Of a stretch of 18,433 nucleotides of DNA, positions 8,303 through 17,976 are shown piece by piece. Each line of letters opens with the position of its first letter. Within the stretch, counting starts at the first letter, position 1. Location: the UHGV virus genome UHGV-0086921. The stretch is one strand, 5' to 3'. The DNA comes from a virus. The notes beneath the pieces were generated by a model. That model made no database searches and had not been told where the DNA came from. It saw nothing but the letters and a program-made list of their open reading frames with translations. A program made the position numbers and the translations under genes.

Positions 8303-8331
8303 AAAAAGCCCCGAGCTATTAACTCAGGGCT
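8303..8331 (-). terminator. tR'-like terminator of the short pR' leader transcript
   Basis: Minus-strand hairpin AGCCCTGAG...CTCGGGGCT followed by TTTTT, about 40-60 nt downstream of the pR' start. It is followed by the CACAACAGGTAAGAGCATT motif that follows tR' in lambda. Confidence 0.5.
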
Positions 8332-8366
8332 TTATTTAACGAGTGCATTTATCCATCGTTGAGTCA

Positions 8367-12444: not shown

Positions 12445-12481
12445 GACTTCCCTCTCCCCCAAATAAAAAGGCCTGCGATTA

Positions 12482-12511
12482 CCAGCAGGCCTGTTATTAG
12501 CTCAGTGATGT
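12482..12511 (-). terminator. tR2-like intrinsic terminator between the replication and nin modules
   Basis: Minus strand: 7-8 bp perfect stem (GGCCTGC / GCAGGCC) with an 8 nt loop, followed directly by TTTTTATTTGG. Same position as tR2 in lambda. Confidence 0.6.
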
Positions 12512-12520
12512 AGATGGTCA

Positions 12521-13957
12521 TCAGAATCCCCCTTTCTTCTTGGACTGCGGTTCCTTGCGTTCACGGCGGCGAATTTCAGCAGACTGTTGGTCTGTGTCAT
12601 AAATAGCGCCATTTGCCTGAATGCAATACACCGTACCGGTATTGCCATGACGATTGAGACGAAGGATTAGTTCGGTTTCACCAGGTGGAACACTGTCATC
12701 AAAAGCGCCTTCACGATGGATCCCAACCCAATAATCGCAATCCTGTTCAATCTGCCCTGTATCTCGTGAGTCACTTGGTAATGGGCGTTTATTGGTTCGG
12801 CTTTCCAGTGCGCGGTTAAGCTGCGTCAGAAGCACAACAACGCAATCAAGCTCTTTGGCAAGGTTCTTCAGTCCTTTGGTGATCATGCCGTAAGCAAGGT
12901 CGTTGCGATCGGCCTTCTCAGCGGTCATTAGTGTCAGGTAATCGACCAGAATCATGCCAACACATCCTTTTTCTCGCTTGATTCGACGGCTTTCGCTGAC
13001 GATTTGAGCCAGAGATAATCCCGGCGTGTCGTCGATGTAAAGCATGTCGATTTCACTCAAGCGATTAGCTGTTTCGATCGCCCTGTTGAAGGCACCATCG
13101 TAATCACCCTGATAGCCGTCATCAGCGTCATTTGTCGCCGGAAGGTAAAAAATATTCGGGTTAACACCAGACTTCTGCCCTACCAGTTTTTCCAGTATCT
13201 GATCACCTGGCATTTCAAGGCTGAACATCAAAGCGGGCTTTTTCTCATGCACTGCGCAATTGATTGCCATCTGGCTGTATAGCGTCGTTTTCCCCATCTT
13301 AGGGCGAGCGCCAATGACAAACAGAGAGCCTTTCACCAGACCTTTCGGTGACAGCATCCTGTCCAGCGATGGGATCCCTGTGCTCATTCCCCGTTGTTCG
13401 CCTGATGGGTCAAATCGCTTCTCAAGGTCGCTAACCCAGTCTTCCATGACCTCACCAAATGAACGAAGGCCGCGACGCGATCCGGTTTTTGCATGGTCTG
13501 TCAGTTGCGTGAAAATCGCCTGAATAGCTTCGTACTTCTGCGTTGCAGTCATTCCGTTGCGGGAATAGAGCAATTCCGTCGCTTCAGTCATGCGGTTGAT
13601 GGCGTAGCGTTCCATTGCGGTTTCACGAACCTGCATTGCATAGGCAACGATGTTTGCTGCGCTTGGCGTGTTCTTTGCGATCTCAGCGATATAAGCAAAA
13701 CCGCCAACAGACGCCGTTAACGATTTACGCTCCAGTTCATCGAAAAGCGTCAGGCCATCTACTGGCTTTTGCTCCCGGTGCATTCTGGTTATTTCTTCGA
13801 AAAGGATTTTGTGTGGTCGGCCGTAAAATGAATCAGGCTTCAGCATCGCCAGAACTTTCCGGACGCGCTCACTGCTGTCATCATCCAGAAGCAATCCACC
13901 AATCACCGCCTGCTCTGCCTCGATGCTATGGGGCGGCGCATAAAAATTATCGGTCAT
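12521..13957 (-). CDS. Replicative DNA helicase, DnaB family (P22 gp12-type)
   Basis: About 478 aa with Walker A GARPKMGKT, Walker B MILVDYL, and the DnaB-like N-terminal domain (IEAEQAVIGGLLLD). Preferred start MTDNFYAPP; overlaps the upstream gene stop. Confidence 0.9.
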   Translation of the reverse strand: MTDNFYAPPHSIEAEQAVIGGLLLDDDSSERVRKVLAMLKPDSFYGRPHKILFEEITRMHREQKPVDGLTLFDELERKSLTASVGGFAYIAEIAKNTPSAANIVAYAMQVRETAMERYAINRMTEATELLYSRNGMTATQKYEAIQAIFTQLTDHAKTGSRRGLRSFGEVMEDWVSDLEKRFDPSGEQRGMSTGIPSLDRMLSPKGLVKGSLFVIGARPKMGKTTLYSQMAINCAVHEKKPALMFSLEMPGDQILEKLVGQKSGVNPNIFYLPATNDADDGYQGDYDGAFNRAIETANRLSEIDMLYIDDTPGLSLAQIVSESRRIKREKGCVGMILVDYLTLMTAEKADRNDLAYGMITKGLKNLAKELDCVVVLLTQLNRALESRTNKRPLPSDSRDTGQIEQDCDYWVGIHREGAFDDSVPPGETELILRLNRHGNTGTVYCIQANGAIYDTDQQSAEIRRRERKEPQSKKKGGF

Positions 13958-14846
13958 CGTGTTCACCCTCACGAACTTTCAGGTAGGTATTATCGTTAAG
14001 CAGGAAATCAAATCCCTTTTTGTGCCAGACGGTTCCGCGCTGATGGTTTGGGCGCTCTTCGAACATCCATCGGCAATTTTCGCCTACGTAGCTCAAATAA
14101 TTTCTCCAGTCCTGCATCGTGAAACCATGCCCGTCAAGCTGTCGGGTTATCACTCCGGCTTTGCGCCAGAACGTTCGGATCTGGTTTTTACGCTTGTCAT
14201 TCAGTGCGCGGATTCTTGGCGCTTCAGGAAGGATTTCGTGGTAAGCATCGACAACATCCTGACAGCTGACGGAAGGTTTTTTCTTGTCAGACTTTTTGTC
14301 TGCTGTGGCACTCTCTAATACGTCAGTATTAGAGATAATATTATTATATTCTTTATCTGTGGTAATTTGCTGGTAATCTGCTGGTACAGTATTGCTTGCA
14401 GGCATTGGTATTGCTGGCTTTGAGGTGGTAATTTGCTGGTAATCTGCTGGTACAAAATTTGACTGATAATCGTCATATTTCTCTACCGAGAAAACTGAGA
14501 ATTTACCGTGTGAAACCCAGTCAATCATGCCGAGTTTTTTGAACTTTCTAAGCAGGTACTGAACGCGATCTGGTTTGAGTCCTGTTTCAAACGCCAGAGT
14601 ATTTCTACCGCCAAGTAGCTTCCCTCTGCCTACCAGAATTTCTCCTGCGTCAGTCATTACATACTCAGGCGTATGCTTTGCTTTGAGGATTAAGTGAACC
14701 CACAGATGCGCAGTTTCTGCGTCCTTGTAAAACGGCACATCCATAATTTTACGGTGCAGCAAGGCATACCCCTTACCGCTGCTTTGATGCGGTTGTTGTA
14801 GCCTTCTGGCCTCTCTGGCTTCGGCTAGATTAGATATGTTACTCAT
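13947..14846 (-). CDS. Replication initiation protein (O-like / P22 gp18-like), with origin iterons inside the gene
   Basis: 299 aa ORF directly upstream of the helicase gene. It contains tandem peptide repeats ([10 protein letters not shown] x2) encoded by DNA direct repeats, the hallmark of lambdoid initiators whose ori lies within the gene. Confidence 0.75.
14355..14455. repeat. Origin-of-replication iteron array inside the initiator gene
   Basis: Two roughly 30 bp direct repeats GTGGTAATTTGCTGGTAATCTGCTGGTACA (about 14358-14389 and 14423-14454) built from CTGGTAAT-type sub-repeats, flanked by an AT-rich stretch around 14320-14360. Confidence 0.55.
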
Positions 14847-14985
14847 GACCTTTCTCCTTCTGCATCAGCTTCACTTTTTCCAACTCAGCCCGGAATCGAC
14901 CAGGCTGCTTGAAGCTGGACAGGAAGCGATCACGTAGTATGTGTTTGTGAATTTTGTCCTGGTAAGGACTGAGTTGTTTTGTCAT
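14839..14985 (-). CDS. Small hypothetical protein (48 aa) between cII and the initiator gene
   Basis: Hand translation: [48 protein letters not shown], with an AGGAG RBS 5 nt upstream. Its stop overlaps the initiator start. No recognised family. Confidence 0.35.
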
Positions 14986-14989
14986 AATG

Positions 14990-15062
14990 ACTCCTGTTGA
15001 TAGATCCAGTCTTTCTACATCAGGCCTCGAAGAATTCGCCGTTCTTCGGGGCTTTTTCTTTT
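14990..15062 (+). ncRNA. oop-like antisense RNA (terminator well supported; promoter tentative)
   Basis: Plus-strand intrinsic terminator at about 15024-15062: 11 bp stem GCCTCGAAGAA / TTCTTCGGGGC followed by TTTTTCTTTT, antisense to and overlapping the cII 3' end, exactly as lambda oop does. Candidate -10 CATAAT at about 14983-14988. Confidence 0.45.
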
Positions 15063-15298
15063 GTCAGCATTCTGGCTACTTTCTTAGCCAGTTCCGCCAA
15101 CTCCTCGTCTTCAACACCCCATTCAAGAACAGCCAGAAGCATTCCCATTTTTGGGATGAAGCTGTCTTTCCATCGCGAAATTTGCGATTCATTAATCCCT
15201 AACGCGTCGGCAACCTTTCGCTGACCACGTACAGCAATTCGATTCAGGATGTTGCTTGTAATTGCATTCGCTTTCTTGCGAGTACTTGTAAGTTGCAT
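15020..15298 (-). CDS. cII: Transcriptional activator CII
   Basis: 92 aa from [62 protein letters not shown]..., with the lambda CII signature ([25 protein letters not shown]). The translation-initiation region AAGGAAATACTTACAT-ATG is lambda-like. Confidence 0.85.
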
Positions 15299-15356
15299 AT
15301 GTAAGTATTTCCTTAACAAATAAGAAGTTATGCGCATCAAATTATGCGCGTTGTAT

Positions 15357-15400
15357 TCCCGCATTTCGGCGGGAATGAGGACCATGACTGTTAAAGAGCG
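15357..15400 (-). promoter_or_regulatory. nutR (boxA + boxB) N-utilisation site
   Basis: On the minus transcript, boxA CGCTCTTTAACAG is followed by the boxB hairpin UCCCGC-CGAAAU-GCGGGA, immediately downstream of cro. An identical boxB is present in nutL. Confidence 0.6.
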
Positions 15401-15408
15401 GGTACTGC

Positions 15409-15627
15409 TTAGGCGGCTTTGTTACTGGATGGAGGGAAAACATCATCCAAAGAACATTGGCACCCTAACTTCCTGAGGCCTTCTACGATCATTCGGCAAT
15501 CGTTAAGGCCAGGAGTACGGATATTCAGCTCATAGTTGGCGATGCGGGATTGCCCCCAACCAATTGCTGAAGCTAGTACAGCTTGCGAAACTCCGATTTT
15601 TTTTCGCTGCTGGGCAATTTTGTTCAT
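15409..15627 (-). CDS. cro: Cro-like HTH repressor (434/P22-type Cro)
   Basis: 72 aa from MNKIAQQRKKIGVSQAVLASAIGWGQSRIANYELN... (HTH_XRE-like), with a GGGAGA RBS. It is the first gene transcribed from the pR-like promoter, divergent from cI. Confidence 0.8.
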   Translation of the reverse strand: MNKIAQQRKKIGVSQAVLASAIGWGQSRIANYELNIRTPGLNDCRMIVEGLRKLGCQCSLDDVFPPSSNKAA

Positions 15628-15639
15628 TGCGGTCTCCCT

Positions 15640-15735
15640 AGCATTAATCACACACCCATTACACACAATTTGTGATTAACAGTCAACCTCAATTCGTGTA
15701 CAGAGTTCAATCACGTTGCGTGTTACATTTAAGGG
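15640..15735. promoter_or_regulatory. Right operator/promoter region (OR with pR and pRM)
   Basis: Divergent cI/cro intergenic region. Minus-strand pR reads TTGACT (about 15681-15686), 17 bp spacer, TGTAAT (about 15658-15663). Repeated AATCACA/TGTGATT operator half-sites (TTAATCACA at about 15644; TGTGATTAA at about 15671; AATCACG at about 15709). Possible pRM -10 TACATT ending at the cI ATG, implying a leaderless cI mRNA. Confidence 0.6.
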
Positions 15736-16383
15736 ATGAAAACGATGCATGAAATTATCGGGGAAAGGATCAAGTCCCTTAGAGAAGCTAAAGGACTTAG
15801 CCAGGCTCAATTGGCCAAGCTTTGCGGCTGGGCTGCGCCTTCACGCCTGGGGAACTACGAGTTAGGAACAAGAAAGGTTAGCGCGGATGACGCGCTGGTT
15901 CTTGGGGCGGCACTCGGCGTATCTCCGGCAAAAATAATGTTTGGCGAGGATTCAGACGCCGTATTTCGCCAATATGAATACCCGTTATTTTCTTCAGTGC
16001 AGGCCGGGCCATTTTCGGAGGTGGGAAGCTACACAGCCAGCGATGCAAAGGCATGGGTCCCAACGACCACAAAAGCCAGCGAAAAAGCTTTCTGGCTTGA
16101 GGTGAAGGGGCATTCAATGACGGCGCCTCAGGGGGTTCGTCCAAGTTTTCCGGAAGGCATGCTGATACTCGTTGATCCGGCTGAGCCGGTAGAGTCTGGG
16201 GATTTCTGCGTGGCTTCTGCAAATGGTGATTCAGAGGCAACGTTCAAGAAGTATGAGAAGGATGCAGGGGTTAGTTACCTGGTACCTTTAAACCCGGCAT
16301 ATAGAACACTGGATTGCGACCATAGCTGCCGCATCATAGGCAAGGTAGTTAAGGCGCAGTGGCCTGAAGAGACGTTTGGCTGA
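15736..16383 (+). CDS. cI: CI prophage repressor (LexA-like S24 autopeptidase family)
   Basis: 215 aa with an N-terminal HTH ([12 protein letters not shown]...) and C-terminal S24 features (VKGHSMTAP... Ser nucleophile, and a later Lys in IGKVVK). An in-frame alternative start at 15745 has an AAGGG RBS. Confidence 0.9.
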
Positions 16384-16533
16384 TCGGCAAGGTGTTCTGG
16401 TCGGCGCATAGCTGGTGAAAAAATTATTTAATGCGGTGTATTGGCTGATTGTAACCCCATGTAACATCTTGCCGTCACCATTTCGGTGGTTAGATTTTTA
16501 ATAAAAAAAAACAAATGTATAGCAAGGTTTTTT

Positions 16534-17013
16534 ATGGATAAAATTAATTACCCACCCCTGTTTGAGCCAGGGTTCCATGACATGGATGAAGCTGGATTAA
16601 AATCGTATTGTGTCGATTGCTTTCCTTCATCATCCAGGCGAGGCATGCTATACTGTAATTTTATACAGCTACTCGAATCTATTCGAGAATTATCTGCTCA
16701 ATATGGCTGTTTTACAGAAATATGGGTTGATGGTTCATACACCACGTCTAAACCAGAGCCTGATGATATTGATATTTTGTTGGTATGTGACTATAGCAAT
16801 ATAAACTCAATACCTGTCATGCTTCGGGGCCGCGTCGATAATTTGCTTGACCGAAACTACATCAAACAAAACTACAAAATTGATGTCCTACTACTCATGA
16901 AGAATTTAGATGACCCTAACTATGATTATGAGTACTGGCGTAGCTACTGGCGCGGTTGGTTTGGTTTTGATCGCAGTGAAAACCCGAAAGGGTTAGTGAG
17001 GATTTTTTTATGA
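16534..17013 (+). CDS. Predicted minimal nucleotidyltransferase-fold protein (Pol-beta superfamily-like), cargo gene A
   Basis: 159 aa from MDKINYPPLF... (the track ORF starts at an upstream GTG in an A/T run, less likely). Motif EIWVDGSYTTSKPEPDDIDILLV fits the NTase GS-x(9-13)-DxD signature. AAGG RBS; AT-rich codon usage unlike the surrounding phage genes. Confidence 0.55.
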   Translation: MDKINYPPLFEPGFHDMDEAGLKSYCVDCFPSSSRRGMLYCNFIQLLESIRELSAQYGCFTEIWVDGSYTTSKPEPDDIDILLVCDYSNINSIPVMLRGRVDNLLDRNYIKQNYKIDVLLLMKNLDDPNYDYEYWRSYWRGWFGFDRSENPKGLVRIFL

Positions 17014-17942
17014 ATGATAAATCAATGTTTAAAAATTGCGATAAACGCATTGATTTCATTCAAAAAGAAGTCGATGCAATGAAGCAAAACAAAACCAGGT
17101 CCTTTGCTGACATGCTTCTTTATCGCTCCATGGATTCTCATCTGAGCGATTTGAAGGCCGAAAAATTAAAGCAAGATAGTCGGCACCCACTTATCGATTT
17201 TTTTGAGCTGCGGCTGAAAGGCTCTGAGGTTGACTTTGGCTCTATTCCTTTAGAGCTGCTTGGGGCTATTTCAACAAATCTTGCAGCGCTAATACAAAGA
17301 GCAACACACAAAATTGCCTCAGGCAAGGACTCAAAAAAAGTTCCCTACGACGTGAAAAGCTCCTTAAACCTCAGGCTGGCTGATTTATCCCCTGGGTCTA
17401 CAAAATTGGGCGTCACCTTCTCTACAGGAATAGCAGAATTAGTAGAAACAGTACCCAGCAAGGCTGTAAAAGGCATATTCGATTTGTTGTTAAGCGATGA
17501 CGACAACAACTTCATGAATCACGTCGCTGAAATTGGATACAATTCCACTGTAAGCCTTAAGAGAATCGTAGAGGAATGCGATAAACACAACTTAACATTT
17601 GATGCAAGTTGGACCGGTCCATTTAGTAATGGCACCAAGGTGGCAACTATTGACTCCAATAAAATTAAGTACTTGGTGAGTAGACTTACATCAACCATTT
17701 CATCCCCTCCCATTACTGAAACGGTTACAGGCGAACTGGTCGTTCTATCCAAATATGGGAAGCTGGAGCTTGATGTTGGTGGTGAACATTTAAAGGCTTC
17801 CTATCCGATTGAAATGCTAGATTTAATACAAAAAAAACACAAGGTCGGACAGATTGTTTCTCTTTTAGTGGAGACTACTGAGATTCACAATGATCGCATA
17901 GGTCTGTACCGTAAAAACCATCTTGTTAAATCGGTTCTTTAA
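17010..17942 (+). CDS. Hypothetical protein (310 aa), cargo gene B, translationally coupled to gene A
   Basis: Its start overlaps the gene A stop (ATGA at 17010-17013). No transmembrane segments are apparent and I recognise no family. AT-rich. Followed by a strong terminator. Confidence 0.6.
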   Translation: MNDKSMFKNCDKRIDFIQKEVDAMKQNKTRSFADMLLYRSMDSHLSDLKAEKLKQDSRHPLIDFFELRLKGSEVDFGSIPLELLGAISTNLAALIQRATHKIASGKDSKKVPYDVKSSLNLRLADLSPGSTKLGVTFSTGIAELVETVPSKAVKGIFDLLLSDDDNNFMNHVAEIGYNSTVSLKRIVEECDKHNLTFDASWTGPFSNGTKVATIDSNKIKYLVSRLTSTISSPPITETVTGELVVLSKYGKLELDVGGEHLKASYPIEMLDLIQKKHKVGQIVSLLVETTEIHNDRIGLYRKNHLVKSVL

Positions 17943-17949
17943 TATCTCA

Positions 17950-17976
17950 CCCGGCCACCGCGCCGGGTTTTTTATT
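17950..17976 (+). terminator. Intrinsic terminator ending the cI-cargo transcript (tIMM-like)
   Basis: CCCGGC-CACCGC-GCCGGG hairpin followed by TTTTTTATT, 8 nt after the gene B stop. Confidence 0.7.

Follow-up and report, generated by a model that had tools for sequence, protein, structure and literature searches.

The stretch of DNA analysed here (18,433 nt, hereafter the window) is the immunity and replication region of a lambdoid element, in an orientation opposite to that of the usual lambda map. A gene for a cI-type repressor lies on the plus strand. The minus strand carries a cro-like gene, a cII gene of the P22 c1 type, a small ORF of the DUF2740 family, and genes for an O-like replication protein and a DnaB-type helicase (Table 1). 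The CII protein of the window shares 53% identity with lambda CII and 86% identity with P22 C1, and the product of the DUF2740 ORF is 85% identical to that of P22 orf48. The O-like gene contains origin-like iterons, GTGGTAATTTGCTGGTAATCTGCTGGTAC, at 14359-14393 and again at 14425-14459. The repeat is also seen at the protein level, and the iterons (14359-14459) correspond to the annotated rep_origin of HK620. The top phage matches to the whole window, mEpX1, HK620 and HK022, are 96-97% identical to it but cover only about 37% of its length, and the element is therefore a mosaic.

The feature under study lies where cII and the DUF2740 ORF adjoin. It consists of a promoter-like element, pO, which sits within the DUF2740 ORF on the antisense strand of that ORF, a short unstructured stretch, and a terminator hairpin, tO, inside the 3' end of cII, whose stop codon occupies 15020-15022 of the minus strand.

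Table 1. Genes and predicted signals around the pO-tO locus, in window coordinates
Feature	Position	Strand	Basis or remark
DnaB-type helicase	12521-13972	-	sequence
O-like replication protein	13947-14846	-	sequence
48-aa DUF2740 ORF (P22 orf48 / HK620 hkaW)	14839-14985	-	Pfam PF10872, 8.9e-29
-35-like hexamer TGGTAA of pO	14960-14965	+	3/6 against TTGACA; 17-nt spacer to -10
33-nt block identical to lambda, TTTGTCATAATGACTCCTGTTGATAGATCCAGT	14978-15010	both	alignment with lambda
Extended -10 of pO, TGTCATAAT	14980-14988	+	TG 14980-14981, CATAAT 14983-14988; identical to lambda
Predicted oop-like antisense RNA, about 63-66 nt	14996 to about 15061	+	ends placed by homology
RNA 5' arm, essentially unstructured	14996-15021	+	-3.6 kcal/mol, z = -0.72
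cII (P22 c1-type), 92 aa + stop	15020-15298	-	Pfam PF05269 Phage_CII, 1.8e-42, full length
Terminator hairpin tO, 14 bp, 5-nt loop UCGCC	15022-15054	+	scan, folding, shuffles, identity to relatives
T-run of tO, TTTTTCTTTT	15053-15062	+	first two T paired at stem base
Cro-like HTH protein	about 15412-15627	-	sequence
cI-type repressor	15736-16383	+	HTH + Peptidase_S24 domain

Several other features of the region were recorded. The 48-aa DUF2740 ORF is labelled 'tail protein' in several RefSeq/GenBank phage records, which looks like a propagated annotation error. Directly 3' of cI and on the same strand, in the place of lambda rexAB, two genes (16486-17942) match the PADLOC candidate defence pair PDC-M63A (2.4e-41; Pfam DUF6932) and PDC-M63B (7.5e-45), with a terminator-like hairpin beyond them at 17949-17968. 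The two genes probably form an anti-phage module of the prophage that is transcribed together with the repressor. Two other strong terminator-like hairpins are present on the minus strand, at 8305-8333 and 12469-12492. One of these has 13 pairs; the other has 8 pairs and closely follows the DnaB-like gene. Both might serve as terminators within an operon of the early-right or late region.

The putative promoter pO and the conserved block around it

The original prediction had placed a plausible promoter about 70 nt upstream, and a promoter-like element, TGGTAA-17-CATAAT with an upstream TG, is present at this distance from the end of the terminator. Its -35-like hexamer lines up with TGGTCA, with which the annotated 29-nt 'oop promoter' of the P22 record BK000583 begins. 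The window hexamer is weak, having one match fewer than that of P22, and on the opposite strand it overlaps codons 8-9 of the DUF2740 ORF. The CAT of CATAAT is the start codon of the same ORF, read on the minus strand. Judged from sequence alone, the candidate promoter combines a good -10 and upstream TG with a -35 that matches at three of six positions. The TG is found one base 5' of CATAAT in all 21 upstream variants found (21/21), which span four unrelated upstream contexts. A consensus sigma-70 scan made no call in 13500-16500, although pR and pRM must lie there; the scan is therefore insensitive and carries no weight against pO. The features annotated 'promoter' at the first BLAST matches in HK620 and Sf6 were also considered and proved to be pRE, not pO.

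The core of this element belongs to a 33-nt block that is identical between the window and lambda and is used on both strands. Read on the plus strand and by lambda coordinates, it includes the -10 hexamer of pO, position +1 and nucleotides 1-15 of oop. Its minus strand supplies the Shine-Dalgarno sequence GGAG (14991-14994) and the ATG (14983-14985) of orf48. In addition, the Sf6 record labels the equivalent stretch as a mosaic 'boundary sequence bsq5'. Since the block serves also as the Shine-Dalgarno sequence and start of orf48 and as a mosaic boundary, its conservation alone is no proof of a promoter. In lambda, the 5' end of oop is at 38,675 with the -10 region 8-13 nt upstream, and a 45-nt pO fragment is inactive whereas a 94-nt fragment is active (PMC5869508). 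The extra upstream sequence of the active fragment lies in gene O in lambda, where the window has an unrelated small ORF.

These observations bear on whether a dedicated promoter is present at all. The block could be kept only as ribosome-binding site, start codon and recombination boundary, with the hairpin insulating cII, pRE and cI from stray antisense transcription. Such a reading would account for the weak -35, for a -10 that overlaps the ATG of orf48, for the boundary-sequence label in Sf6 and for the inactivity of the short lambda fragment, pO45 (PMC5869508). It fits poorly with P22 and BTP1, which share the orf48 context yet make a discrete RNA here (PMC13397905, PMC7067206), with the retention of the TG extended -10 in every upstream context, and with a distance from +1 to the terminator that stays at 67-82 nt in every allele. 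We consider this reading very unlikely.

The terminator hairpin tO and its alleles

The sequence of tO on the plus strand is AGGCCTCGAAGAA-TTCGCC-GTTCTTCGGGGCTT (15022-15054). The terminator scan found 14 pairs, six of them G-C, closed by a 5-nt loop. The stem of 11 bp with one G-U pair that had been described earlier is exact for the core, which runs from G15024-C15052 to A15034-U15042 and includes U15027-G15049, but the full stem is longer, as three further pairs extend it (U15035-G15041, G15023-U15053 and A15022-U15054). No T-run follows the hairpin on the minus strand, and the terminator signal is therefore unidirectional.

Folding agreed with the earlier call of a strong terminator-like signal on the plus strand. 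The RNA from 14996 to 15062 (67 nt) folds at -23.6 kcal/mol (z = -4.61), and 0 of 200 shuffles folded as well; the hairpin by itself reaches -20.0 kcal/mol (z = -4.39), so that both values lie near a z of -4.5. Among terminator-like sites on both strands of the whole 18.4 kb, tO ranks first. Under a strict criterion of at least 11 contiguous pairs followed by at least eight T in ten, it is the sole site in the window, and any such site appeared in only 1 of 200 dinucleotide-shuffled windows.

As had also been proposed, the hairpin is antisense to the end of cII. It lies inside the coding sequence, opposite the last 11 codons of a gene that is recognized over its full length as Phage_CII and runs on the minus strand (Table 1), while the hairpin and T-run are on the plus strand. 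The structure favors the oop sense. In that sense it folds at -20.0 kcal/mol versus -12.6 kcal/mol in the cII sense, a difference of 7.4 kcal/mol, because three G-U pairs turn into C-A mismatches on the other strand. Of six allele types, five share a folding bias towards the oop sense, and the two strands of the P22-type allele fold about as well as each other. When the CII tail was recoded synonymously 20,000 times, the observed hairpin beat 99.5% of the recodings for the window, 98.9% for P22 and 99.9% for lambda. The tO stem is not forced by the protein sequence of CII.

The same data weigh on the idea that the hairpin is a sense-strand feature of the cII mRNA, for instance a site of processing or of 3' stabilization, or that it arose by chance from the C-terminal codons of CII. 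Its place within the coding sequence and the equal folding of the P22-type allele on both strands would suit such an origin. In the window, however, the sense version is 7.4 kcal/mol weaker and has no T-run after it, just 0.5% of the synonymous recodings reach its stability, and a comparable site arose in a single one of the 200 shuffled windows. An origin of this kind is extremely improbable.

To see how the hairpin varies, we scanned for the conserved 5' block, and the survey accordingly covers loci that carry this block. At least 120 IMG/VR viral loci were recovered, representing 28 distinct RNA alleles. A hairpin and T-run were present in 28/28 alleles, 67-82 nt from +1, and the stems represent at least four sequences unrelated to one another. 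The types are that of lambda, a second long type, that of P22, and the one shared by the window, HK620, Sf6, L and BTP1. A MAFFT alignment of 16 alleles placed the two short-type stems out of register, with the 3' arm offset by 1 nt. Because the register was lost, the stems were compared pair by pair from the base.

When the window-type stem is set against the P22-type stem, five pairs have both partners replaced, and pairing is kept. The inner stem and the loop thus differ between P22 and the window, with the 3' arm offset by 1 nt, and because of this difference the last eight internal residues of CII also differ, from APKNGEFF in the window type to PQDCGNSF in the P22 type. The stem comparison is supporting evidence that the RNA structure is under selection, as it consists of independent sequences that all fold, from few haplotypes, and not of statistical covariation. 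The stem haplotypes may have arisen by segment replacement and not by stepwise compensatory mutation.

Comparison with the oop RNAs of lambda, P22 and BTP1

The OOP RNA of lambda is 77 nt long and antisense to the 3' end of cII. Like it, the locus in the window lies between cII and the replication genes, antisense to the 3' end of cII, and is oriented against pR. The two have an identical -10 and upstream TG, the same distance from the -10 to +1, and the same first 15 nt of RNA. In both, an intrinsic terminator lies within cII, and the two CII proteins are homologues. With lambda as the guide, the predicted +1 is G14996, whereas the 5' end seen by RNA-seq in P22 corresponds to 14999. The 3' end is predicted within the T-run, at about 15061. 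The predicted RNA covers the final 13 codons of cII and its stop codon, reaching about 42 nt into the gene with the stop included. The feature of about 70 nt first delineated at 14990-15062 therefore begins 6 nt upstream of the predicted +1, and the RNA itself is slightly shorter, about 65 nt. Its 5' arm is the complement of that part of the pR transcript which lies between cII and orf48.

The differences from lambda are also clear. The RNA of the window is shorter than the 77-nt OOP because a 15-nt deletion removes stem-loop I, and the two-hairpin architecture of the lambda type (stem-loop I and terminator) is thus absent. The terminator stem is unrelated in sequence and longer, at 14 bp versus about 11 bp. 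The overlap with cII is about 42 nt versus 52-57 nt in lambda. The original statement that the hairpin lies exactly where lambda oop terminates is right in placing it inside the 3' end of cII but is only approximate. Upstream, a 9-nt deletion in the window puts the lambda -35, TTGAGT, out of register. By eye, this deletion, located upstream of the -10, appears to remove lambda sequence in the area of the LexA and DnaA boxes reported near lambda pO. Finally, gene O lies upstream of pO in lambda, where the window has the 48-aa DUF2740 ORF. The two-hairpin form marks the lambda subtype and does not define the oop family, as P22 also has the short form.

A closer counterpart is that of P22. Its curated record BK000583 carries 'promoter: oop; similar to phage lambda' (TGGTCA-17-CATAAT) and 'terminator: oop'. 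The P22 gene order, c1-orf48-gene 18-gene 12, corresponds to that of the window, and 27 of the 29 promoter positions agree. The RNA is likewise of the short form, with a near-identical 5' arm and the same T-run. Small-RNA sequencing detected P22 oop as a 63-nt RNA at 653-1513 RPM in infected samples versus 0 in uninfected samples (PMC13397905). That paper credits P22 oop to Backhaus & Petri 1984. Its P22 coordinates fit AF217253 and not NC_002371, and the locus was located via the published RNA sequence.

From GATCCAG to the end of the T-run, BTP1 and the window do not differ, and they share a promoter type. Differences are found at a -35 base (A versus C), just before the -10 (T versus G), and at -6 and +7. 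At this position, an RNA named OOP(BTP1) was called from RNA-seq and dRNA-seq (Owen et al. 2020, PMC7067206); we found no coordinates for it in the accessible parts of the text and supplements of that paper. In the BTP1 RefSeq record (NC_042346, 30531-30705), the gap between cII and O is empty, and neither the orf48/DUF2740 homologue nor OOP(BTP1) is annotated. The tO hairpins of HK620, Sf6 and phage L are identical to that of the window. The oop gene is unannotated in these phages, and the phage L record MW013503 annotates the same hairpin as a terminator. Phage 21 carries an annotated 'oopRNA'.

The RNA of the window has two lambda-type bases, T14998 (+3) and A15002 (+7), which set it apart from P22 on what is otherwise an RNA of the P22/HK620 type. 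They weaken only a small 5' hairpin of the P22 type, from -7.2 kcal/mol in P22 to -3.6 kcal/mol, and have no effect on target pairing because the RNA is cis-encoded. The exact 103-nt promoter-plus-RNA sequence is absent from the collections searched, which comprised 5,426 E. coli genomes, some 50,000 phage records and the viral contigs retrieved. The combination of these two bases is consistent with recombination inside the boundary sequence.

In summary, three characters of the oop family are found at this locus: position and strand, 5' homology, and a tO 60-80 nt from +1. The identity first suggested for it holds well: position, strand, promoter and terminator correspond to those of lambda oop, and more closely to those of P22 oop. 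We regard it as very likely that the locus is the oop gene (pO-oop-tO) of a P22-/HK620-like lambdoid prophage or phage, working by the antisense mechanism described below, and this copy is predicted, from its signals, to be transcribed. The oop RNA of the short P22/BTP1 type is already well known.

This familiarity is poorly reflected in databases. The locus is common: with the 103-nt promoter-plus-RNA query, a partial match was obtained in 1,189 of 5,426 complete E. coli genomes, and at least 80% of the query was present in 344. The oop locus is left unannotated in most GenBank/RefSeq records, and the lambda records NC_001416 and J02459 have no oop annotation. A search of the window against Rfam gave no match at the gathering score, and only chance sub-threshold matches at the locus. 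As a control, the oop locus of lambda itself also gave no Rfam match at E <= 1. Rfam 15 is therefore without an oop model, and the blank result for the window is uninformative. This gap in annotation would be filled by a covariance model trained on the four types of hairpin. The database searches also turned up MW057783.1, 'Campylobacter phage CJLB-4', a 48,361-bp record of approximately lambda length with a 97% match to the lambda pO/O region, which is probably lambda contamination or a mislabelled record.

Predicted action of the RNA and its meaning for the lysis-lysogeny switch

In the mechanism we favor, RNA polymerase would start at the extended -10 promoter inside the start of the 48-aa DUF2740 ORF, run against the pR operon, and halt at the tO hairpin and its T-run, releasing an RNA of about 65 nt. 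Because it is cis-encoded, this RNA would pair perfectly, over about 65 nt, with the pR transcript. The pairing would begin 1 nt upstream of the orf48 Shine-Dalgarno sequence, pass over the cII stop codon and extend into the final 13 codons of cII. If lambda is a guide, RNase III would cut this duplex, which is about 65 bp long. The cII message would then decay, and the resulting drop in CII would lower pRE-driven cI expression and tilt the decision towards lytic growth. In lambda, oop lowers cII via RNase III (Krinke & Wulff 1987, 1990, as cited in PMC5869508 and PMC3985674), and it is by this analogy that we infer RNase III-dependent down-regulation of cII by the RNA of the window. Without stem-loop I, the details of pairing and of RNase III cleavage may differ from those in lambda.

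Transcription from pO might instead matter for its own sake. Convergent transcription would hinder pR and tune replication, as has been put forward for lambda (PMC3985674), and the RNA would be largely a by-product whose length is limited by tO. In lambda, inactivation of pO alters plasmid replication and raises pR read-through past pO, and changed levels of oop RNA barely affect plasmid copy number (PMC3985674). The setting in the window would be suitable, as pO is immediately upstream of the orf48-O-DnaB operon with its origin iterons. Against this, the antisense effect of lambda oop on cII is well documented (PMC5869508, PMC3985674), and the replication module of the window is of the P22 type with a DnaB-type helicase, not lambda O/P, so that the lambda result may not transfer. 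We hold a primary role for promoter activity to be possible but doubtful. It is compatible with an antisense role, and the two are not exclusive. A strong, strand-biased and conserved tO shows only that the transcript stays short, and fits both readings alike.

The antisense mechanism could also be extended. The short-type oop of P22, HK620 and BTP1 lacks stem-loop I and has a single-stranded 5' arm whose end is 1 nt away from the Shine-Dalgarno sequence of the orf48-O-DnaB operon. The short type might then form a distinct functional subclass that controls translation or stability of the replication operon, or acts in trans, beyond the trimming of cII, with the CII tail shaped mainly by terminator pairing and not by protein function. 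In lambda, the C-terminal tail of CII is the region of the proteolysis signal. We consider this combined proposal unlikely.

On the reading we prefer, that of a cis-encoded antisense RNA directed at cII, oop completes the annotation of the lysis-lysogeny switch of this element, alongside cI, cro and cII with its pRE site. More generally, the locus is a case of overlapping constraints, in which an intrinsic terminator lies antisense within a regulator gene and persists while stem replacements rewrite the tail of the protein encoded on the other strand.
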